IMG/VR virus record: IMGVR_UViG_2671180357_000001
Location: 1-30,616 of that record
Length of the DNA: 30,616 nt
Reading direction: 5' to 3' (one strand)
From: a virus
Taxonomy: Duplodnaviria; Heunggongvirae; Uroviricota; Caudoviricetes
The notes below the pieces were generated by a model. That model was not told the origin of the DNA, ran no database searches, and saw nothing but the letters and a program-made list of their open reading frames with translations. The number at the start of each line of letters is the position of its first letter. The stretch's first letter is position 1. The position numbers and the translations under genes are program-made. This document shows, piece by piece, positions 8,396 through 28,376 of this stretch.

Positions 8396-9649
8396 TTACT
8401 GCCCGGCAATAACGATGCCCGTATATTCAGGAACAAGTACAGAGCAACCGTACAGAGTGGTGAAACGAGCAGTGGTTACGCCTTTGATGTGGTCGAAGGC
8501 GTAAGACATGATCAGCGTAGCGCCCTGCTCGGTGGTTGCTGTCATTACCTGTGGACCCTGACCAGTTGGGAACGCCAGCTTGCCGTACATCAGTTCAACA
8601 GAACCATCAGCCCAGAACAGGTTAGCCGGTGCGGCATTTTTGTTGAGAATGGTGATTGCTGCGCTACTTGCCGCATTAGCATCAACGTTTGCATATGGTC
8701 GGCTGGCGACATCCGCGTTGTCAGGCGGCAGAATTTTCGGGGAGATAGTTACTGTCGTTCCGCTTACTGCCAGAACGCGGAATACCTGCGGCTGCCCGGT
8801 GGTATCTTTGGTGATCTGGTGTACAGAATTCACCCCTGCGATGGTAAACGCATCGCCAACCTGCAAACCTTCAGCAGATACCGTAATGGTCCCCTGCCGG
8901 TTATCCACTGGCATATCGTTAGCATCTTTCGCTTCAACCTTGTGCGCAGGTGCTGCTGCCAGCGTAATGGAAGTTGCTGTACCCTTCGGAACACGACCAG
9001 AAATATCGGTCTTGTAGCTATCGAAGGACGCAACCGGAGGGATCTGCGCTTTTTCGTATGCTGTCAGGGTTGCGCCCTGAGCATAGGCACGGTGACCAAG
9101 CTCGCCAGCAAGGTCTTTATAGTTGAATGGGTTCCAGAAAGAGCGGCGGTTGATACCCTGTGGTACACCAATCGCCGTCATGGTGGCATCAATACCTGCC
9201 GCACAGTTCCACAAATCACGGCCCTGTGAACCAGTGTTTGAGTCAGCCATTGTTATCACGTTAGTAGCACGCTGCGTGACCATGGAAATCAGGTCAGAGT
9301 CAATCTGTGCAGCAAGGCGCATACCTGCGGCGCGACCAGCTTCAGTTTTATGTTCCGGGTCACGCATTTCACGCGCATCCAGAGTGTACAGAATGTTTTT
9401 CGGCTCCTTGAACACTGAAGGAACAAGGCGCTGAACCAGTGCTGTTGGCGTTTTGCTGCTGAGATCGAGTCCTTCCTCAATGTTCATGTGGTAATGCTGC
9501 GGACGATACAGAACATCACCTGCTCGCTGCATTGCTGTATCACCGGGACGGAATTTTTTAGCGTTACGGGAAACTACGCAGGCGGCCTCAAAGCCTTCAA
9601 CGTAGTTTTCGAACATGATTTCAAGGTCTTTTGCTAATTGGTTAGCCAT
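8396..9649 (-). CDS. Major capsid (coat) protein, P22 gp5-like
   Basis: 417 aa after the scaffold gene; motifs such as NLFWADGSVEL resemble recalled P22-family coat proteins. Confidence 0.8.
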   Translation of the reverse strand: MANQLAKDLEIMFENYVEGFEAACVVSRNAKKFRPGDTAMQRAGDVLYRPQHYHMNIEEGLDLSSKTPTALVQRLVPSVFKEPKNILYTLDAREMRDPEHKTEAGRAAGMRLAAQIDSDLISMVTQRATNVITMADSNTGSQGRDLWNCAAGIDATMTAIGVPQGINRRSFWNPFNYKDLAGELGHRAYAQGATLTAYEKAQIPPVASFDSYKTDISGRVPKGTATSITLAAAPAHKVEAKDANDMPVDNRQGTITVSAEGLQVGDAFTIAGVNSVHQITKDTTGQPQVFRVLAVSGTTVTISPKILPPDNADVASRPYANVDANAASSAAITILNKNAAPANLFWADGSVELMYGKLAFPTGQGPQVMTATTEQGATLIMSYAFDHIKGVTTARFTTLYGCSVLVPEYTGIVIAGQ

Positions 9650-21596: not shown

Positions 21597-23477
21597 TTAA
21601 TACTCCGTCACGTTTTCCTGTCGCCACGCCTCGTCATATTCCGATTTCGGCATATTGGCGATGTAGCTATATGGAGATCCTGATTCAAGTTGCAGGAACT
21701 GGTGCGATTGCTCGTCAAGGAACAACGGGACACCACCTTCCCAACCTTCGCCGTTACGTTGTTTTTCAAGCATCAAAACAGATGCCGGAGATGCCAGTAG
21801 CTGTTCGTCCTTCTCTGACATTTTTTCACCACTCTGAACTCTCTGTAACGCTCTCTCGCGAGCCTTGTTACGCCAGATGATGAAAAGGTTGTCTGTCAGG
21901 TCTGTTATCGCTCCAGAGCCTTTTACGTCCATTTTCCCGGTTGGTTTTTCTTCGCTGTCTCCTTTTCGCGAGTGAGTAACGAGAATGACGTGGGAGTTTG
22001 TTTTGTTTTTGAAGTCGCAAATCGAGTCAACAAACGCCTTCTGCCCGTTATAGTCATCGTCGCCTATGCCACATTTCATCAGGCTGTCGATGATGAATAA
22101 CTGGATCCCGTATCGGCGGCGAGCGTAGTCGAATATTTCGATCAGCCTGTCGGCTTTCGCCGTTCCGGTCAGGCCAAACACCCAAAGTCTTTCGTCATAA
22201 AATTTAAATGCAGAGTCAATTTCCAGCACTGGCGGCATCTTGCAGCACGTCGCCTGACGGGTAAGGCGCTTAAGGAGAATACCAGGCTTCAGCTCAAGTG
22301 ACGCGATGCACGTCTTCACACCCTGACGCATTGCCTCAAGTGCCATATGCCCGACAACCTCCGTTTTTCCGTGACCGTTCACACCATTGACCAGCGTCAA
22401 CTCGGCCTCACGGAACTGGAATTTATCTGCCAGAGATTCCCACGGTGGATTAAACAGATACTGCTGCTTGCCGTAGAAAGCGTTGATAGTGTCCTGGTAA
22501 AACTCTCGCGCGCTGTAGAGTTCTTCAGGATCGAAGTAGGATGCCGTGCCAATGTACTGCCAGATTTCATCCTCGGTAACACCGTTCATCAGGCATTCGT
22601 TGATGTCTTTGTACGGCAGAGTAACAAGACGGCAACGATGTTCACCGAGTCGGCTTGCGATTTCCCTTGCGGCTTCACGACCAACATCATCAACGTCCAT
22701 CGAGATAAATATTTCCTCAAACCTGTCGAGGTTGTGATACTCAAACTCAATCCACTGCTGCTTAGCGCCTTTCCCGCCACCAAACGGCACGGATAACGCC
22801 GAGATGCCGTATTGCGCATAGCTCATACAATCAATTTCGCCTTCGCAAAGTACAACTGCCCTCACGCCAGCGTCCAGAGCCTGCCATCCGAACAGACAAG
22901 GTTCGCAATCACCTTCTGCCATAATGACTTTCTTCCCGTCCGGGCGCTCAGTGCTGATTCGCTTGACCTGCAACAACTCACCATCGCGTTTGTACGGAAT
23001 CACCAGAGCATCCAGTTCCCGCTCTCCATTCCACACCTTGCCGCTGACAACCTCGTAGCGCTTTACGACTTCTGGCGATATGCCACGCGATTGCAGGTAC
23101 TCAAGATGGGATTCTGTCCTGGTAACGTAGCGGGCGATTTTCTTGCGATCAGGTCTGGAGAATTTCTTCTCACGTTTGGCATCGAAATGGTGATCGTCAT
23201 CCTTGATTCCGAGAAATGCTTTCGCTTCCTGCATCGCCTGATGCAGGTTAATTCCACGACATGCCATCCACAAATCAAGCATGTCACCGCCGTCTCCCTC
23301 AGCGAAATCAGCCCATTTTTTCTTGCCGCTAAGGTTGACCTTAAGGCTGTTTCCCTTGTCACCGTTGACGTTACCGGCAACCCACTCATGCCCCTCTTTC
23401 TTGCCGTTTGGCAACAGGTGCGGAGCCACCCTGTCAACCTGCGCCCAAAGCAGGTCGCTAAGTTCACTTGGCCTCAT
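21597..23477 (-). CDS. Bifunctional DNA primase/replicative helicase
   Basis: 626 aa; N-terminal zinc-binding/toprim-like region and C-terminal helicase with Walker A GVNGHGKT; occupies the lambda P / P22 gene 12 position. Confidence 0.8.
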   Translation of the reverse strand: MRPSELSDLLWAQVDRVAPHLLPNGKKEGHEWVAGNVNGDKGNSLKVNLSGKKKWADFAEGDGGDMLDLWMACRGINLHQAMQEAKAFLGIKDDDHHFDAKREKKFSRPDRKKIARYVTRTESHLEYLQSRGISPEVVKRYEVVSGKVWNGERELDALVIPYKRDGELLQVKRISTERPDGKKVIMAEGDCEPCLFGWQALDAGVRAVVLCEGEIDCMSYAQYGISALSVPFGGGKGAKQQWIEFEYHNLDRFEEIFISMDVDDVGREAAREIASRLGEHRCRLVTLPYKDINECLMNGVTEDEIWQYIGTASYFDPEELYSAREFYQDTINAFYGKQQYLFNPPWESLADKFQFREAELTLVNGVNGHGKTEVVGHMALEAMRQGVKTCIASLELKPGILLKRLTRQATCCKMPPVLEIDSAFKFYDERLWVFGLTGTAKADRLIEIFDYARRRYGIQLFIIDSLMKCGIGDDDYNGQKAFVDSICDFKNKTNSHVILVTHSRKGDSEEKPTGKMDVKGSGAITDLTDNLFIIWRNKARERALQRVQSGEKMSEKDEQLLASPASVLMLEKQRNGEGWEGGVPLFLDEQSHQFLQLESGSPYSYIANMPKSEYDEAWRQENVTEY

Positions 23478-23584: not shown

Positions 23585-24445
23585 TCACCTGTCGAAAAAC
23601 ACGTAGCCAGTTTTCGATACGGTGATTGCGGATGATGGTTTGGATTGTGGTTGAATAGTTTCTGGCTTCTCGTCGTTCCAGCGCTGACCGTTCAGGTAGC
23701 TCGATGGTAACAACCTGTCGAATCCGAACTGCTTACCATTCCTGCATGCGATGTCTTCTGCCAGCATCGTGGCAAACTCGCTTGCCGTACCCCTGGTAGT
23801 TTTACGCCATTCCCTGAACTGTGTTCTGAATGCCGAAGCTGCGTTTTTCTTCCCGGCTTTCCGCATGCCTGCACACCAGAATATTTCCTCGAATGCCTTG
23901 TCGGTTTCTTCGTGACGGTCAGATGATTTTTCACACTCCGTCCGAACACTTTCGGACATAGTGTTTTTATTATTTCTTTTTTCTTTTGTAATAGTTTCTT
24001 TTGTGTGTCCCTGTTTTGGTGACAGCGCTGTCACCGTTTTGGTGACACTTTTTGTCACCAATGCAGTGACATTATCACCAGAGTAGTGACACCCTTCGAT
24101 TTGCCATTCCTCGATGTTCTTGTTAGGCCCGATTTGCTGGCCTTCGCGAAGGATTACCTTCATCGCGATAAGCTCATTCTTGGCCTTGTTTACCTTCTGT
24201 CTTGGCAGCCTGGTAATTTGAGCTAACTGACTATCAGAGATGCGATCCATCTTTTTACCGTAGCCGTATGTTTTACGGCATATGGCGTGGGCAACCTTGC
24301 TCTGATTTTTCGTTAAATCTGCGCCGATAAGCTCTTCATACAGGGCATTTGCAAGACGGGTATAACCATCTTCAACTTCTGCCACACGACGCTCCACAGG
24401 CCGTTGTGAAGGCCTTAAATGTGTTACGGTTGCAAGATTACTCAT
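23585..24445 (-). CDS. O: Replication initiator, lambda O-like N-terminal domain
   Basis: N-terminal region ([53 protein letters not shown]) resembles recalled lambda O; origin iterons lie inside the gene. Confidence 0.8.
23957..24075. promoter_or_regulatory. Replication origin: palindromic GGTGACA/TGTCACC iterons plus adjacent AT-rich region, inside the O gene
   Basis: Perfect 18-bp palindrome GGTGACAGCGCTGTCACC, a 19-bp GGTGACACTTTTTGTCACC and further half-sites, followed on the O coding strand by an AT-rich stretch. Confidence 0.6.
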
Positions 24446-24584
24446 GACCTTTCTCCTTCTGCATCAGCTTCACTTTTTCCAACTCAGCCCGGAATCGACC
24501 AGGCTGCTTGAAGCTGGACAGGAAGCGATCACGTAGTATGTGTTTGTGAATTTTGTCCTGGTAAGGACTGAGTTGTTTTGTCAT
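24438..24584 (-). CDS. Small basic hypothetical protein (48 aa) between cII and O
   Basis: [48 protein letters not shown]; AGGAG 5 nt upstream of the ATG; 3' end overlaps the O start. Confidence 0.4.
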
Positions 24585-24616
24585 AATGACTCCTGTGGAT
24601 TGATCCAGTAATTACC

Positions 24617-24913
24617 TCAGAATTGCATATCAATTTGCTTAAAATCCTCGGTGGCGGCCGGGGATTTTTTCTTTGTGATTTCATCAAGCGCATACTTAAA
24701 AGCCCTGCTAATCGGACTGATGTCTGATGCCATTCCGAAAGCACACAAGACCGAAGCAATAAATCTCCAGTCCGTTCTGCTTATCTTCGATTCATGACAG
24801 CCAATCATCTTTGCCAAACCGCGCTGGGTAAGCGTTGACAGGTTGATGAGTAAATCTGTTTCTGCGCGATCAACGTCGCGCTGTGATAGTTTGCTGTAAC
24901 TTGTTTGTTCCAT
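24617..24913 (-). CDS. cII: CII-like transcriptional activator
   Basis: 98 aa; HTH region and C-terminal KKKSPAATEDFKQIDMQF resemble recalled lambda CII. Confidence 0.75.
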   Translation of the reverse strand: MEQTSYSKLSQRDVDRAETDLLINLSTLTQRGLAKMIGCHESKISRTDWRFIASVLCAFGMASDISPISRAFKYALDEITKKKSPAATEDFKQIDMQF

Positions 24914-24977
24914 TTCTTACTATTTCCATAGGTAAATAATCACTAATACTCATCTTTCGATGAGTGATTAATTAGTT

Positions 24978-25011
24978 ACCGCGTTGTCGGCGGTGCAGAT
25001 TGATAAAGAGC
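24978..25011 (-). promoter_or_regulatory. nutR: boxA (GCTCTTTAT) and boxB hairpin (ACCGC-CGACAAC-GCGGU) between cro and cII
   Basis: boxA matches the nutL boxA; boxB loop shares the GACAA core with the nutL boxB; placement as in lambda and P22. Confidence 0.55.
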
Positions 25012-25022
25012 TGATCCGCTTA

Positions 25023-25238
25023 TTAAGCGGCTTTGTGTTCCGGCGGGAACACGTCATCAAGACTGACTTTTGCGCCTAACTTGTTTAGGCACGCAACAAG
25101 AGCACGGCATGTTTTAAGGTCTGGGAAGCGACGACCAGATTCCCAATGTCCGATAGCTCCCTGTGTGCATCCAACCGCCTTAGCAAGTGTTGTTTGAGAG
25201 ATATTCAGTGACTCTCGATATTTTCGTAGGTTGCTCAT
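25023..25238 (-). CDS. cro: Cro-like HTH repressor
   Basis: ORF 25023..25409 trimmed to Met58 (MSNLRKYRESLNISQTTLAKAVGCTQGAIGHWESGRR...), GGAGGG RBS; divergent from cI; recognition helix nearly identical to the cI N-terminal helix. Confidence 0.75.
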   Translation of the reverse strand: MSNLRKYRESLNISQTTLAKAVGCTQGAIGHWESGRRFPDLKTCRALVACLNKLGAKVSLDDVFPPEHKAA

Positions 25239-25264
25239 ATGCCCTCCATAGTAACCATGAAACA

Positions 25265-25293
25265 ATAATACGATATGTACTTTTGGAATGCAA
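25265..25293 (-). promoter_or_regulatory. pR candidate promoter (TTGCAT-N17-TATTAT) driving cro
   Basis: Minus-strand -35/-10 hexamers with 17-nt spacer; the spacer closely resembles the pL spacer. Confidence 0.5.
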
Positions 25294-25340
25294 ACAAAAA
25301 ATACATCTTGTGCATGGATGGTTTTAGTACAGAGCGTAAT
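25267..25340. promoter_or_regulatory. oR: three candidate 15-bp repressor operator sites (about 25267-25281, 25300-25314, 25326-25340)
   Basis: 6-3-6 sites of the form A(A/G)TACA-N3-(C/T)GT..., e.g. AATACGATATGTACT; the same motif recurs three times at oL. Confidence 0.5.
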
Positions 25341-25355
25341 AATAAGGATATGAAG

Positions 25356-26009
25356 ATGAAATGGTATGAACTGGCTAGATCCAGAATGAAAGAACTCGGC
25401 ATAACTCAAGAGAAGTTAGCTGAAGAGCTTGGTATGACGCAGGGTGGAATTGGTCACTGGTTGCGCGGATCTCGTCATCCATCTCTTGACGAGATTGGTG
25501 TGGTGTTTAAATACCTTGGTATTGATAACGTCTCATTCAACCACGACGGTACATTTTCACCTGTTGGCGAATACTCATCTGCCCCCGTTAAAAAACAATA
25601 TGAGTACCCTGTTTTTTCTCATGTTCAGGCCGGGATGTTCTCGCCTGAGCTTAGAACCTTTACCAAAGGTGATGCGGAGAGATGGGTCAGCACAACCAAA
25701 AAAGCCAGTGATTGTGCGTTTTGGCTTGAAGTTGAAGGTAATTCCATGACCGCACCAACAGGATCCAAGCCAAGCTTTCCTGACGGGATGTTAATTCTCG
25801 TTGACCCTGAGCAGGCTGTTGAGCCAGGTGATTTCTGCATAGCCAGACTTGGTGGTGACGAGTTTACCTTCAAGAAACTGATCAGGGATAGCGGTCAGGT
25901 GTTCCTACAACCACTAAACCCGCAATATCCAATGATCCCATGCAATGATAGCTGTTCCGTAGTAGGGAAAGTTATCGCCAGCCAGTGGCCTGAAGAGACA
26001 TTTAGTTAA
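25356..26009 (+). CDS. cI: CI-type prophage repressor (S24 LexA-like autopeptidase); C-terminal domain lambda cI-like, N-terminal HTH domain distinct
   Basis: ORF 25275..26009 trimmed to Met28; residues from [21 protein letters not shown] to the end are near-identical to recalled lambda cI, including the Ala-Gly cleavage site; N-terminal HTH differs. Confidence 0.85.
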
Positions 26010-26041
26010 CAGCCTCACCACTCTAAAACACACAACAATAA

Positions 26042-26069
26042 CCCGACCTTAGCGTCGGGTTTTCTTTTT
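26042..26069 (+). terminator. Rho-independent terminator after cI
   Basis: CCCGAC-CTTAGC-GTCGGG hairpin followed by TTTTCTTTTT. Confidence 0.6.
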
Positions 26070-26088
26070 CCAAAATATAAATCAATAA

Positions 26089-26161
26089 AATACAAAGTGT
26101 TATAAAAAACTAACCACATTTAGAACATTTTGTATTGACTCAATAAAGTACACATCGTACT
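26089..26161. promoter_or_regulatory. oL: three candidate 15-bp operator sites (about 26089-26103, 26122-26136, 26147-26161)
   Basis: AATACAAAGTGTTAT, AGAACATTTTGTATT and AGTACACATCGTACT; the last overlaps the pL spacer and -10 and matches an oR site at 13 of 15 positions. Confidence 0.5.
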
Positions 26162-26163
26162 AT
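26135..26163 (+). promoter_or_regulatory. pL candidate promoter (TTGACT-N17-TACTAT)
   Basis: Good -35/-10 hexamers with 17-bp spacer, upstream of nutL and N. Confidence 0.55.
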
Positions 26164-26209
26164 TTAGCCATCAGCAGGAAGCTGGAAGCCAAACGGAACA
26201 GATTGGCAG

Positions 26210-26243
26210 GCTCTTTAACTTCGATGGGGCGCTGACAAAGCGC
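26210..26243 (+). promoter_or_regulatory. nutL: boxA (GCTCTTTAA) and boxB hairpin (GCGC-TGACAAA-GCGC)
   Basis: boxB matches the recalled P22 nutL boxB; boxA-like element 10 nt upstream; lies between pL and the N start. Confidence 0.65.
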
Positions 26244-26362
26244 AAACAGATACCAAACGAGATGGGTTTGGCGGTGATGTGAATTGCAGCTGCAACGACA
26301 GCAACCAGAAGATCAGCACCTGGCGCATCACCACCAAAGCCATTTCACATGAGGAAAATATC

Positions 26363-26671
26363 ATGACGGTAATCGTGTACGGGAAATCAACATTTGCAGG
26401 AAATGCCAAAACTCGCCGTCATGAGCGGCGCAGAAAGCTGGCTATCGAGCGTGATGCTATATGCAACATCATCGATTCGATCTTCGGCACAGACAGTGAG
26501 GAACCTGTTCAGGAAGCCCCGAGAAAACGTTTAATCCTTTCTGAAAAAGCAATATCACTCGGCAACATTCGTAACCAAAATACCGACGAATGCAGTGGAA
26601 GTATTTGCCTGCCAAACGTAGCTCTTTACGCGGCAGGCTACCGGAAATCAAAACAACTGACGGCGAGGTAA
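26363..26671 (+). CDS. N: Antitermination protein N, P22 gp24-type
   Basis: ORF 26279..26671 trimmed to Met29 (MTVIVYGKSTFAGNAKTRRHERRRKLAIERD...), an arginine-rich motif matching recalled P22 gp24; GAGGAAAA RBS. Confidence 0.75.
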   Translation: MTVIVYGKSTFAGNAKTRRHERRRKLAIERDAICNIIDSIFGTDSEEPVQEAPRKRLILSEKAISLGNIRNQNTDECSGSICLPNVALYAAGYRKSKQLTAR

Positions 26672-26674
26672 GTG

Positions 26675-26899
26675 ATGAATCAGACATACATTCCATCATG
26701 CTTGAGAAATCTGCCAAAGCAGAAAGCAAAGCCCAGCAAGCAAGCCATAAAGGACGCTAAGGCAGAGGTTATTGATCAAGCAATACAATTGCTCAGGGAG
26801 GAGTTAAGAAGTGGCAAGCTCGAAGGAATGATGATGCCCTATCAGCGCGGATATCTATCGGCGATTAGTAAGTTGGAAGTATTGAAGAGTGAATTATGA
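26675..26899 (+). CDS. Hypothetical protein (74 aa), first gene downstream of N
   Basis: ORF track 26672..26899 begins at GTG; ATG at 26675 with GAGG upstream; Lys-rich, predicted helical; no family recognised. Confidence 0.5.
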   Translation: MNQTYIPSCLRNLPKQKAKPSKQAIKDAKAEVIDQAIQLLREELRSGKLEGMMMPYQRGYLSAISKLEVLKSEL

Positions 26900-26961
26900 A
26901 CTATCTGGAATTTCCGGATGGTTCATTATTTTGGCAGCAAACCACTTATTTGAGGTGAGAT

Positions 26962-27048
26962 ATGGAAGAAGAATTTGAAGAGTTCGAAGAGCATCCGCAG
27001 GATGTGATGGAACAATACCAGGACTATCCTTATGACTACGACTATTGA
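26962..27048 (+). CDS. Candidate acidic/aromatic micro-protein (28 aa)
   Basis: MEEEFEEFEEHPQDVMEQYQDYPYDYDY; GAGGTGA immediately upstream; 3' end overlaps the ral start by 17 nt; may be a coupling leader. Confidence 0.3.
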   Translation: MEEEFEEFEEHPQDVMEQYQDYPYDYDY

Positions 27049-27232: not shown

Positions 27233-27368
27233 TGGTGGCCTTTATTTTTGGCATAAACAACAGAATAAACACTGCACTGTGTATTCATTCCAACGAGTGA
27301 ATACACGGAGCAATGTCGCTCGTAACTAAACAGGAGCCGACTTGTTCTGATTATTGGAAATCTTCTTT

Positions 27369-27395
27369 GCCCTCCAGTGTGAGGGCAATTTTTTT
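27369..27395 (+). terminator. Rho-independent terminator just upstream of the EAKR-protein gene
   Basis: GCCCTC-CAGTGT-GAGGGC hairpin followed by AATTTTTTT. Confidence 0.55.
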
Positions 27396-27407
27396 GACGG
27401 AGGATAT

Positions 27408-28376
27408 ATGAGTGAAGTAACAGATTTAGTTGTTATTGAAAAAGCAAATGCAATGACTGTATTTCAGTCTGCCGACCAGATTGAAGAAATCCTTCAAAGG
27501 GTTGAACGTGAAGTTATGTCCTTTGTGCCTGATATCACAACGGCAAAGGGCAGAAAGGAGATCGCTTCTCTGGCGTATAAAGTTGCGCAGACGAAAACAT
27601 ATCTCGATGGTCTTGGCAAAGACCTTGTTGCTGAACTGAAGGAAATTCCAAAGCTAATTGATGCCAACCGCAAGACAGTGCGCGATCGCCTTGATGAACT
27701 GAAAGCCAAGGCACGCCAGCCTCTTACTGATTATGAAGAGGAACAGGCGCGGATTAAAGCCGAAGAAGAAGCTAAGGCAGCAGCTGAAGCTCTCGCAAAG
27801 CAAATTGAGTCTGACCATGAAATAGCGATTTTGATGGATCGCGAATTTGACCGCCAAAGAGAAGAGGCAAGACTCAAAGCGGAGCAGGAAAAGCGAGAGC
27901 ATGAAGAACGCTTAAAAAGAGAAGCTGAAGAGAAAGCCAGAGCAGAAGCCGAAGCAAAGGCAAAAGCCGAAATTGAAGCAGCAGCAAGGCGAGAAGCAGA
28001 AGCTAAGGCCGCAGCGGAACGTGCAGAGCGTGAACGCATTGAAGCCGAGCAACGAGCACAGCGCGAAGCAAAAGAGGCAGCAGAACGAGCTGAAAGAGAA
28101 AAGCAGGCGGCAATTGAAGCAGAACGCCGAAAAGCACAGGAGGAGGCGGAACGAATCCGGCGCGAGGCTGAAGCAAAAGAGCAAGCCAGAATAGCAGAAG
28201 AAAAAAGAATCAAGGACGAAGAAGAGCGCAGAGCAAAGGATAAAGCTCACCGGAAAGAAGTAAATAACAAAATACTTGCTGACCTTATCAAGGTTGGCGC
28301 ATCAGAAGATGTTGCTAAAAATATCATAACAGCCATCGCAAAAGGCGAAGTATTCGCAACAAAAATAACCTACTAA
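27408..28376 (+). CDS. Hypothetical coiled-coil protein with long Glu/Ala/Lys/Arg-rich central repeat region (322 aa)
   Basis: ORF 27354..28376 trimmed to Met19 (GGAGGA RBS); about 110-aa N-terminal region, about 170 aa of EAKAEAEARRE-type low complexity, short C-terminal region. Confidence 0.6.
   Translation: MSEVTDLVVIEKANAMTVFQSADQIEEILQRVEREVMSFVPDITTAKGRKEIASLAYKVAQTKTYLDGLGKDLVAELKEIPKLIDANRKTVRDRLDELKAKARQPLTDYEEEQARIKAEEEAKAAAEALAKQIESDHEIAILMDREFDRQREEARLKAEQEKREHEERLKREAEEKARAEAEAKAKAEIEAAARREAEAKAAAERAERERIEAEQRAQREAKEAAERAEREKQAAIEAERRKAQEEAERIRREAEAKEQARIAEEKRIKDEEERRAKDKAHRKEVNNKILADLIKVGASEDVAKNIITAIAKGEVFATKITY
27760..28280. repeat. Low-complexity GAA/GCA/AAA/CGN-rich coding repeat encoding the EAKR tract
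   Basis: Imperfect short repeats visible in the nucleotide sequence; they generate spurious antisense ORFs 27731..28213 and 27912..28250. Confidence 0.6.

Follow-up and report, generated by a model that had tools for sequence, protein, structure and literature searches.

Which immunity specificity is encoded around the cI repressor gene in IMG/VR virus record IMGVR_UViG_2671180357_000001, and from which phages do its parts come? The stretch analysed, 30,616 nucleotides in length and hereafter termed the window, represents a lambdoid coliphage or prophage that is P22-like (Lederbergvirus-type) and whose virion and replication genes are 94-96% identical to those of Escherichia phages E212, vB_EcoP-720R6, CUS-3 and Sf101. 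A first-pass annotation of this DNA had predicted a distinct specificity built from lambda and P22 parts. The analysis described here indicates that positions ~25023-26183 are very probably the immunity cassette (cro-oR-cI-oL/pL) of this coliphage or prophage, and that the cassette most likely works like the lambda switch. Lambda supplies only the oligomerisation/autocleavage domain of the repressor, and P22 only the antitermination module. The domain identities, the operator sites with their enrichment and conservation, and the cleavage and catalytic motifs reported below are read directly from the sequence; the positions of the features are collected in Table 1.

Two domains of the cI repressor

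The alignments with lambda, for which GenBank J02459 served as the reference, separate the two domains of cI sharply. The C-terminal S24 domain is identical to that of lambda cI at 133 of 136 residues, those of the Ala-Gly cleavage site and the Ser/Lys dyad among them, and the near-perfect BLASTP match runs to the C-terminus; at the DNA level, positions 25599-26003 are 94.3% identical to lambda cI over 405 nucleotides. In contrast, the N-terminal domain and linker share only 19 of 83 residues (23%) with the longer domain of lambda, and although the two belong to a common broad fold class, the recognition helix is different. No DNA similarity to lambda cI is detectable upstream of 25599, where the sliding-window identity to lambda rises from ~0.4-0.5 to 0.97 within ~30 bp; the jump falls in the interdomain linker, ~10 residues before the Ala-Gly site. 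The earlier description of a nearly lambda-identical C-terminal domain joined to a different DNA-binding domain is borne out by these alignments.

Three substitutions distinguish the C-terminal domain from that of lambda; they lie in ASDSAF (S to C), in CNESC (E to D) and at the terminal residue (G to S). They spare the cleavage site Ala94-Gly95, the nucleophile Ser132 (GNSM) and the general base Lys175 (FKKL), all of which are present in cI and align with A111-G112, S149 and K192 in lambda numbering. The motifs place cI among the putative autocleaving repressors of the LexA/S24 type (lambda cI class), and the 98% identity to the lambda C-terminal domain points to RecA-stimulated self-cleavage.

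The N-terminal domain was also said to resemble closely the Cro encoded divergently from cI. This holds for the recognition helix, the greatest likeness being in helices 2-3, where TQGGIGHW and TQGAIGHW agree at 7 of 8 residues, but for the domain as a whole (22 of 62 residues identical, 35%; E = 8e-13) it was overstated. Cro, which is annotated as such in 720R6 and in the Shiga toxin 1 (Stx1)-converting phage (AP005153), is an HTH_3 protein of the 434/P22/L style and does not have the fold of lambda Cro. The coordinates of its gene are corrected here to 25023-25238, which gives 71 residues. It aligns with Cro of phage L, with which it has the helix TQGAIGH(W/Y)ESGRR in common; the recognition-helix region reads TQGAIGHWESGRR in the window and TQGAIGHYESGRR in phage L. 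Compared with the PDB, Cro matches the 82-residue 'lambda repressor-like protein' 28tn (E = 5e-17), and a search of the same database for a close solved structure of the cI N-terminal domain returned at best (E ~1e-4) generic HTH_3 entries, including the N-terminal domain of lambda repressor. Helix 2 of the cI domain is acidic, in the manner of the positive-control patch of lambda repressor.

Public annotations differ in the start of cI. RefSeq and AP005153 place it at ATG 25314 (231 residues), which is located inside oR2, and the 720R6 annotation at ATG 25356 (217 residues), which has AAGGA as its Shine-Dalgarno sequence. A leaderless pRM transcript like that of lambda would fit a start at ATG 25350.

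Operators, promoters and the predicted switch

The six 15-bp sites of 6-3-6 form that had been reported, three at oR and three at oL, were all located, with the consensus A(G/A)TAC(A/G)-N3-(C/T)GTA(C/T)T and centre-to-centre spacings of 33/26 bp at oR and 25/33 bp at oL. Nor is the motif equally frequent elsewhere in the window. The pattern ARWACANNNYGTAYT, allowing at most one mismatch, gives 10 matches compared with 1.48 ± 1.52 expected from shuffles, 8 of them on five of the six operator sites, and a leave-one-out position weight matrix (PWM) of the half-sites ranks five of the six above every other 15-mer in the 30.6 kb. A conservation footprint was drawn from the two intergenic regions of six cassettes, those of the window, the Stx1-converting phage, 720R6, E. 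coli VR50, UTI89 and R6. The variable columns amount to 4 of 72 in the half-sites, 5 of 18 in the central triplets and 40 of 114 in the other intergenic positions (Fisher p = 2e-6), and purifying selection appears to act on the half-sites of the operators. A chance origin of the 15-mers is ruled out by the shuffles, the leave-one-out PWM and the footprint. Two operator-like 15-mers lie outside oR and oL, AGCACGGCATGTTTT at 25101-25115 inside cro and TGTACAGAATGTTTT at 9385-9399 in a virion gene; their PWM scores of 12-13 are comparable to that of oR2, and they are probably chance matches.

At both predicted lytic promoters, pR and pL, O1 spans the spacer and the -10 hexamer with its centre at ~-16 from the predicted start, and oL2 is centred at ~-41. 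The two promoters share 12 of 17 spacer bases and 21 of 29 positions over the whole -35 to -10 block; the spacers, which had been called near-identical, are similar at most, and they resemble each other because O1 is embedded in both. Three related pseudo-palindromes on each side of cI, overlapping divergent promoters, match the tripartite architecture of lambdoid phages. In AP005153, putative operators are already annotated, three on each side at oR and oL, along with pR (labelled 'putative major rightward promoter'), pL and pRM, and their positions coincide with those derived independently for the window.

The locus resembles that of lambda in that oR and oL have three sites each, with O1 lying across the lytic promoter and O2 ~42-43 bp before cI, and in that a terminator follows the immunity transcript. 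It differs from lambda, where oR1 and oR2 are 24 bp apart, rexAB is present, and the operators are of another sequence and not of the 15-bp 6-3-6 form. No lambda operator consensus (17-bp TATCACCGC type) is present in the window within 3 mismatches, and together with the low identity of the N-terminal domain this excludes the imm-lambda specificity. The imm-P22 specificity was rejected as well: the N-terminal domain is identical to that of P22 c2 at only 18 of 82 residues, Cro cannot be aligned beyond the helix-turn-helix (HTH), and the PWM misses oR and oL of P22. The c2/cro specificity of P22 is unrelated to the repressor, Cro and operators of the window. As had been predicted, the specificity is expected to be distinct from those of both phages.

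The antitermination module is of the P22 type, in agreement with the first-pass annotation. N is 69% identical to P22 gp24 and has an identical arginine-rich motif, GNAKTRRHERRRKLAIERD, whereas its central part has diverged; nutL and nutR are each identical to the annotated P22 sites at 32 of 34 positions, with the same boxA and identical boxB. The arginine-rich motif, boxA, and P22 boxB hairpins downstream of pL and cro argue for P22-type N/nut antitermination.

Homology and geometry suggest how the switch would operate, from binding and the order in which the sites are filled to cooperativity across the 33 bp between oR1 and oR2, looping and activation of pRM. Dimers of cI would read the 15-bp pseudo-palindromes through the HTH_3 domain of the Nil2/phage L family. 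Because oR1 lies over the spacer and -10 of pR, and oL1 and oL2 lie over pL, bound cI would occlude RNA polymerase, and repression would reach both early operons, that of cro-cII-O-P on the minus strand and that from N onward on the plus strand. The centre of oR2 is ~43 bp upstream of the cI ATG at 25350, compared with 42 bp for OR2 of lambda, and cI bound at oR2 could activate a weak, probably leaderless pRM. Centred at ~-17, oR3 overlaps pRM and would shut it off at high repressor, providing negative autoregulation. The lambda-allele C-terminal domain would form dimers, tetramers and octamers and confer pairwise cooperativity and oL-oR looping over ~0.85 kb, and RecA-stimulated cleavage at Ala94-Gly95 by Ser132/Lys175 would lead to SOS induction. 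Cro, through its near-identical recognition helix, would compete for the same sites, and N acting with the P22-type nutL and nutR would antiterminate the early transcripts.

Several points weigh against such a lambda-like switch. Four unrelated positions in the window score at least as high as the weak oR2 with the leave-one-out PWM, and oR2 is supported mainly by conservation and position, its half-sites being invariant in the six cassettes while two of its three central bases vary. The six sequences of the footprint represent about two lineages, so that its columns lack independence. For pRM, the hexamers match poorly and the consensus scan did not find the promoter, and the start of cI is ambiguous, with 25314, 25350 and 25356 all in use in public annotations. 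The literature found on Nil2-type immunity consists of genomic descriptions, with no binding, footprinting, electrophoretic mobility shift or transcript data. Moreover, because oR1 and oR2 are 33 bp apart and oR2 lies off the -35 of pR, pairwise cooperativity in the style of lambda is not guaranteed there; phage L nevertheless keeps nearly the same spacing (34 bp) despite its different C-terminal domain, which suggests that the spacing is functional.

Relatives and history of the cassette

The prediction that the specificity was assembled from lambda and P22 parts did not hold. Judged from their closest relatives, the N-terminal domain, Cro and operators come from neither phage and belong to a third lineage, the phage L/epsilon34/Nil2 family, within which they are of the Nil2/Stx2-II lineage and related to L/ST64T, epsilon34 and g341c. 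In tblastn, the N-terminal domain matches the Stx-phage group at 96-100%, followed by the Salmonella phages g341c, SPN9CC, epsilon34 and L at ~54%; counted by residues, the identities are 46 of 82 to g341c and 40 of 83 to phage L. Phage L/ST64T and epsilon34/g341c (48-56% identical in this domain) have a nearly identical recognition helix and the same Cro family, and the phage L family also shares the half-site ATAC(A/G), the 3-bp centre and the oR/oL spacing. A PWM made from the window alone finds the three oR and three oL sites of phage L as the top scores in a 3.2-kb L locus, their scores of 15-17.8 being equal to or higher than those of the window's own sites, and nothing comparable at the lambda or P22 operators. 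The centre-to-centre spacings in phage L are 34/26 and 25/30 bp, and an equivalent weak site is found at the oR2 position. The C-terminal domain of phage L is of the P22 type and 47% identical to that of the window, whereas g341c and epsilon34 have a lambda-family C-terminal domain (~79% identity). Villafane et al. (2008, PMC2629481) described the epsilon34 repressor as ~80% identical to those of lambda and HK97 in its C-terminal domain and ~50% identical to those of L, VT2-Sa and Nil2 in its N-terminal portion, with the operator consensus WTACRAWWTGTAT. The distinct specificity of phage L immC was reviewed by Zaworski et al. (2020, PMC8022706). The specificity of the epsilon34/phage L family is presumably different from that of the window.

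The cro-oR-cI unit (25005-26009) is 93% identical in many Stx phages, and the carriers include the Stx1-converting phage (AP005153), Stx2 II (AP005154), Nil2 (AJ413274), 2851, 1717 and the PA series. The repressors of these Stx phages have been assigned to CI clade I, with 61% overall identity to lambda CI (Fagerlund et al. 2022, PMC8951638). The cI protein of the Stx1-converting phage is identical to that of the window at 80 of 83 residues in the N-terminal domain and 132 of 136 in the C-terminal domain, and the Stx phages have three oR and three oL sites at the same positions. They differ from the window in ~1.4 kb of extra open reading frames (ORFs) between cI and oL, in an HK97-type N, and in a C-terminal-domain allele that departs by a few residues. 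With cro, oR and the N-terminal domain at least 92% identical and the operator positions the same, the cassette can be assigned, as far as homology allows, to the Nil2/Stx2-II type.

In the Lederbergvirus phages Dewey, Louie, vB_EcoP-720R6, vB_EcoP-683R2 and phi458, the whole cassette has 98% DNA identity, and the cI protein of 720R6 is identical to that of the window. These P22-like coliphages also have in common with the window the toprim/helicase replication module and P22-like virion genes. In Dewey, Louie, 720R6 and 683R2 the 98% identity covers positions 25023-26183 only, beginning at the cro stop codon and ending ~13 bp beyond the start of pL (in 720R6 the match stops 3 bp earlier, at 26180), and the Dewey group differs from the window in having a different N/nutL module from there on. 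Beyond the limits of the cassette, N is of the HK97 type in Stx phages, different in 720R6, and of the P22 type in the window; the combination of the cassette with a P22-type N is found in the E. coli VR50 chromosome (98.8% identity over 24400-26964). The cassette moves as a unit, and is a mobile immunity cassette whose neighbours change outside its limits. A perfect hairpin with a 6-bp stem, CCGCTTATTAAGCGG, is present at 25016-25030, where it overlaps the cro stop codon directly upstream of the nutR boxA; the left end of the mobile cassette falls at the same place.

In the interval from cI to oL (26010-26088 in the window), cI is followed directly by the terminator, which is homologous to that after lambda rexB. 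In relatives this slot is occupied by unrelated cargo, namely several small ORFs (Stx1 phage), a DUF1828 gene pair (UTI89), two ORFs (g341c) or rexAB (lambda), and it seems to be a hot spot for accessory genes that are expressed from the prophage.

The segment comprising cro, oR and the N-terminal domain occurs in 776 of 5426 complete E. coli genomes (14%), including UTI89 and O157:H7 strains. The specificity that had been called distinct is different from those of lambda and P22, but it is not new, being present in many sequenced phages as well as in these genomes. The cassette is an already known, widespread and annotated lambdoid immunity type, and an ordinary case of textbook lambdoid mosaicism. 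It provides a clear case from nature of a lambdoid repressor that is mosaic at the level of its domains, an architecture already discussed in print, and a natural counterpart to the engineered repressor chimeras that address which domain sets cooperativity. It has some practical value, since many Stx2a and Stx1 prophages of E. coli O157:H7 are under its control; a footprinted operator map and the cooperativity at the unusual 33-bp oR1-oR2 spacing would bear on the induction of Shiga-toxin phages.

The most economical history would be an old fusion that joined the N-terminal domain to a C-terminal domain of the lambda family, after which the C-terminal allele was recently replaced through homologous recombination with a lambda-like phage. 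This history is suggested because the C-terminal-domain DNA of the window is closer to lambda (94%) than to the Stx-phage copy of the cassette (~91%), and because positions 26032-26067 are 89% identical to lambda 35799-35834, the terminator downstream of rexB; cI and this terminator stand as if rexAB had been left out when the two were joined. The mosaic would have arisen by recombination, of a kind typical of lambdoid phages, in the interdomain linker, in the conserved C-terminal domain and at the nut-proximal boundaries. The same two observations argue against slow divergence of an ancestral repressor under constraint, without recombination, as the source of the lambda-like C-terminal domain. 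Motifs are indeed common to all lambdoid S24 C-terminal domains, and g341c and epsilon34 pair the same N-terminal family with a lambda-family C-terminal domain, so the combination must be older than this phage; yet DNA identity to lambda passes from undetectable to 94-97% within ~30 bp at 25599, and constraint alone would not preserve synonymous sites. Slow divergence is accordingly most improbable, and replacement of the C-terminal allele is the preferred explanation.

The likeness to Salmonella phage L/ST64T raises the question of whether the cassette has a specificity of its own at all, or is homoimmune or partly cross-immune with L/ST64T by reading the same half-site. The latter we consider rather unlikely, even though the recognition helices are nearly identical (TQGAIGHWLNG in the phage L repressor; TQGAIGHWESGRR versus TQGAIGHYESGRR in Cro), the window PWM ranks the oR and oL sites of L at the top of the L locus, and the spacing is conserved. 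The N-terminal domains are identical at only 40 of 83 residues, and by Casjens-type practice two repressors are expected to have the same specificity only from 92% identity upwards (PMC2629481); preferences for the central triplet or flanks, and contacts outside helix 3, can split specificities, as in 434 versus P22; and the C-terminal domains are lambda-type versus P22-type, so that the cooperativity partners differ. No cross-immunity data for this cassette against phage L/ST64T were found. While a specificity different from that of phage L is preferred, the common helix and half-site may allow cross-immunity across genera with L/ST64T. That the locus has decayed and is no more than the non-functional relic of a cryptic prophage would be in keeping with the defective state of many E. 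coli prophages, with the window being possibly a prophage and with the chromosomal origin of its closest full-length matches. It is highly improbable all the same, as the reading frames of cro, cI, N, cII, O and P are all intact and match their families over the full length, the set of P22-like virion genes is complete and 94-96% identical to that of isolated phages, the 98% identical cassette is carried by the virion-recovered phages Dewey, Louie, 720R6 and phi458, and the operators seem to be constrained by purifying selection in their half-sites. An intact, working immunity cassette is the reading retained here.

Lambda-family repressors dimerise mainly via the C-terminal domain. Since that of the window is essentially the lambda allele, mixed dimers or oligomers might form with the lambda-C-terminal-domain repressors of co-resident prophages and destabilise lysogeny or couple induction; we regard this as unlikely and advance it tentatively. 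If it were true, mixed dimers with two different DNA-reading heads would bind neither operator set well. Prophages with a lambda C-terminal domain are common in E. coli, and the cassette of the window alone is present in 14% of complete genomes.

Organization of the early region

Compared with the usual lambda map, the early region runs in the opposite orientation (Table 1).

Table 1. Positions in the window of the features of the immunity and early regions.
Feature	Position	Strand	Evidence or sequence
toprim/DnaB-like primase-helicase	21597-23477	-	
O-type initiator	23585-24445	-	
DUF2740 ORF	24438-24584	-	
cII-type activator gene	24617-24913	-	Pfam Phage_CII, E = 5e-32
TTGC-N6-TTGT box	24891-24904	+	5' end of cII, strand reading towards cI
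nutR, P22-type	24978-25011	-	boxA GCTCTTTA 25004-25011; boxB ACCGCCGACAACGCGGT 24978-24994
cro, 71 residues, HTH_3 type	25023-25238	-	Pfam HTH_3, E = 4e-12
Predicted pR	25265-25293	-	TTGCAT (25288-25293), 17-nucleotide spacer, TATTAT (25265-25270); consensus scan
oR	25267-25340		between cro and cI
oR1	25267-25281		AATACGATATGTACT; overlaps pR -10 and spacer; annotated operator in AP005153
oR2	25300-25314		AATACATCTTGTGCA; weak; upstream of pR -35; annotated in AP005153
oR3	25326-25340		AGTACAGAGCGTAAT; overlaps predicted pRM core; annotated in AP005153
cI gene	25350-26009	+	HTH_3 and Peptidase_S24 architecture (Pfam)
cI N-terminal HTH_3 DNA-binding domain and linker, residues 1-83	25350-25598	+	Pfam HTH_3, E = 8e-11
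cI C-terminal S24 autocleavage/oligomerisation domain, lambda allele	25599-26009	+	Pfam Peptidase_S24 PF00717, E = 9e-29
Intrinsic terminator after cI	26040-26069	+	terminator scan
oL/pL	26089-26163		after the post-cI terminator
oL3	26089-26103		AATACAAAGTGTTAT; matching operator annotated in AP005153
oL2	26122-26136		AGAACATTTTGTATT; overlaps pL -35; annotated in AP005153
Predicted pL	26135-26163	+	TTGACT, 17-nucleotide spacer, TACTAT; consensus scan
oL1	26147-26161		AGTACACATCGTACT; overlaps pL spacer and -10; annotated in AP005153
nutL, P22-type	26210-26243	+	boxA GCTCTTTA 26210-26217; boxB GCGCTGACAAAGCGC 26229-26243
N antiterminator, P22 gp24 type	26363-26671	+	Pfam N_peptide, E = 7e-40

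The replication module consists of a lambda-O-type initiator and a 626-residue fusion of a toprim primase with a DnaB-like helicase. The latter differs from the P loader of lambda and the gp12 helicase of P22, and forms another mosaic joint adjoining the immunity cassette. Within the O-type gene, four tandem 19-bp palindromic iterons (TGTCACC-N5-GGTGACA) are located at 24006-24091, spaced 20-24 bp apart, and constitute the expected lambdoid origin of replication. The TTGC-N6-TTGT box at the 5' end of cII is likely to be the expected CII-activated pRE site. A scan of the whole window against Rfam at gathering thresholds gave 0 matches.

On the 3' side of N lie a 75-residue ORF, ral and recombination genes. 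The gap after ral contains, at 27269-27296, a 9-bp inverted repeat (GTGTATTCA-N10-TGAATACAC) without a T-run. Further along, at 27354-28376 on the plus strand, an ORF of ~320-340 residues, without a Pfam match, has a long, highly charged and repetitive centre rich in E, A, K and R, and may be the repeat-containing orf232 reported in phage L/ST64T.

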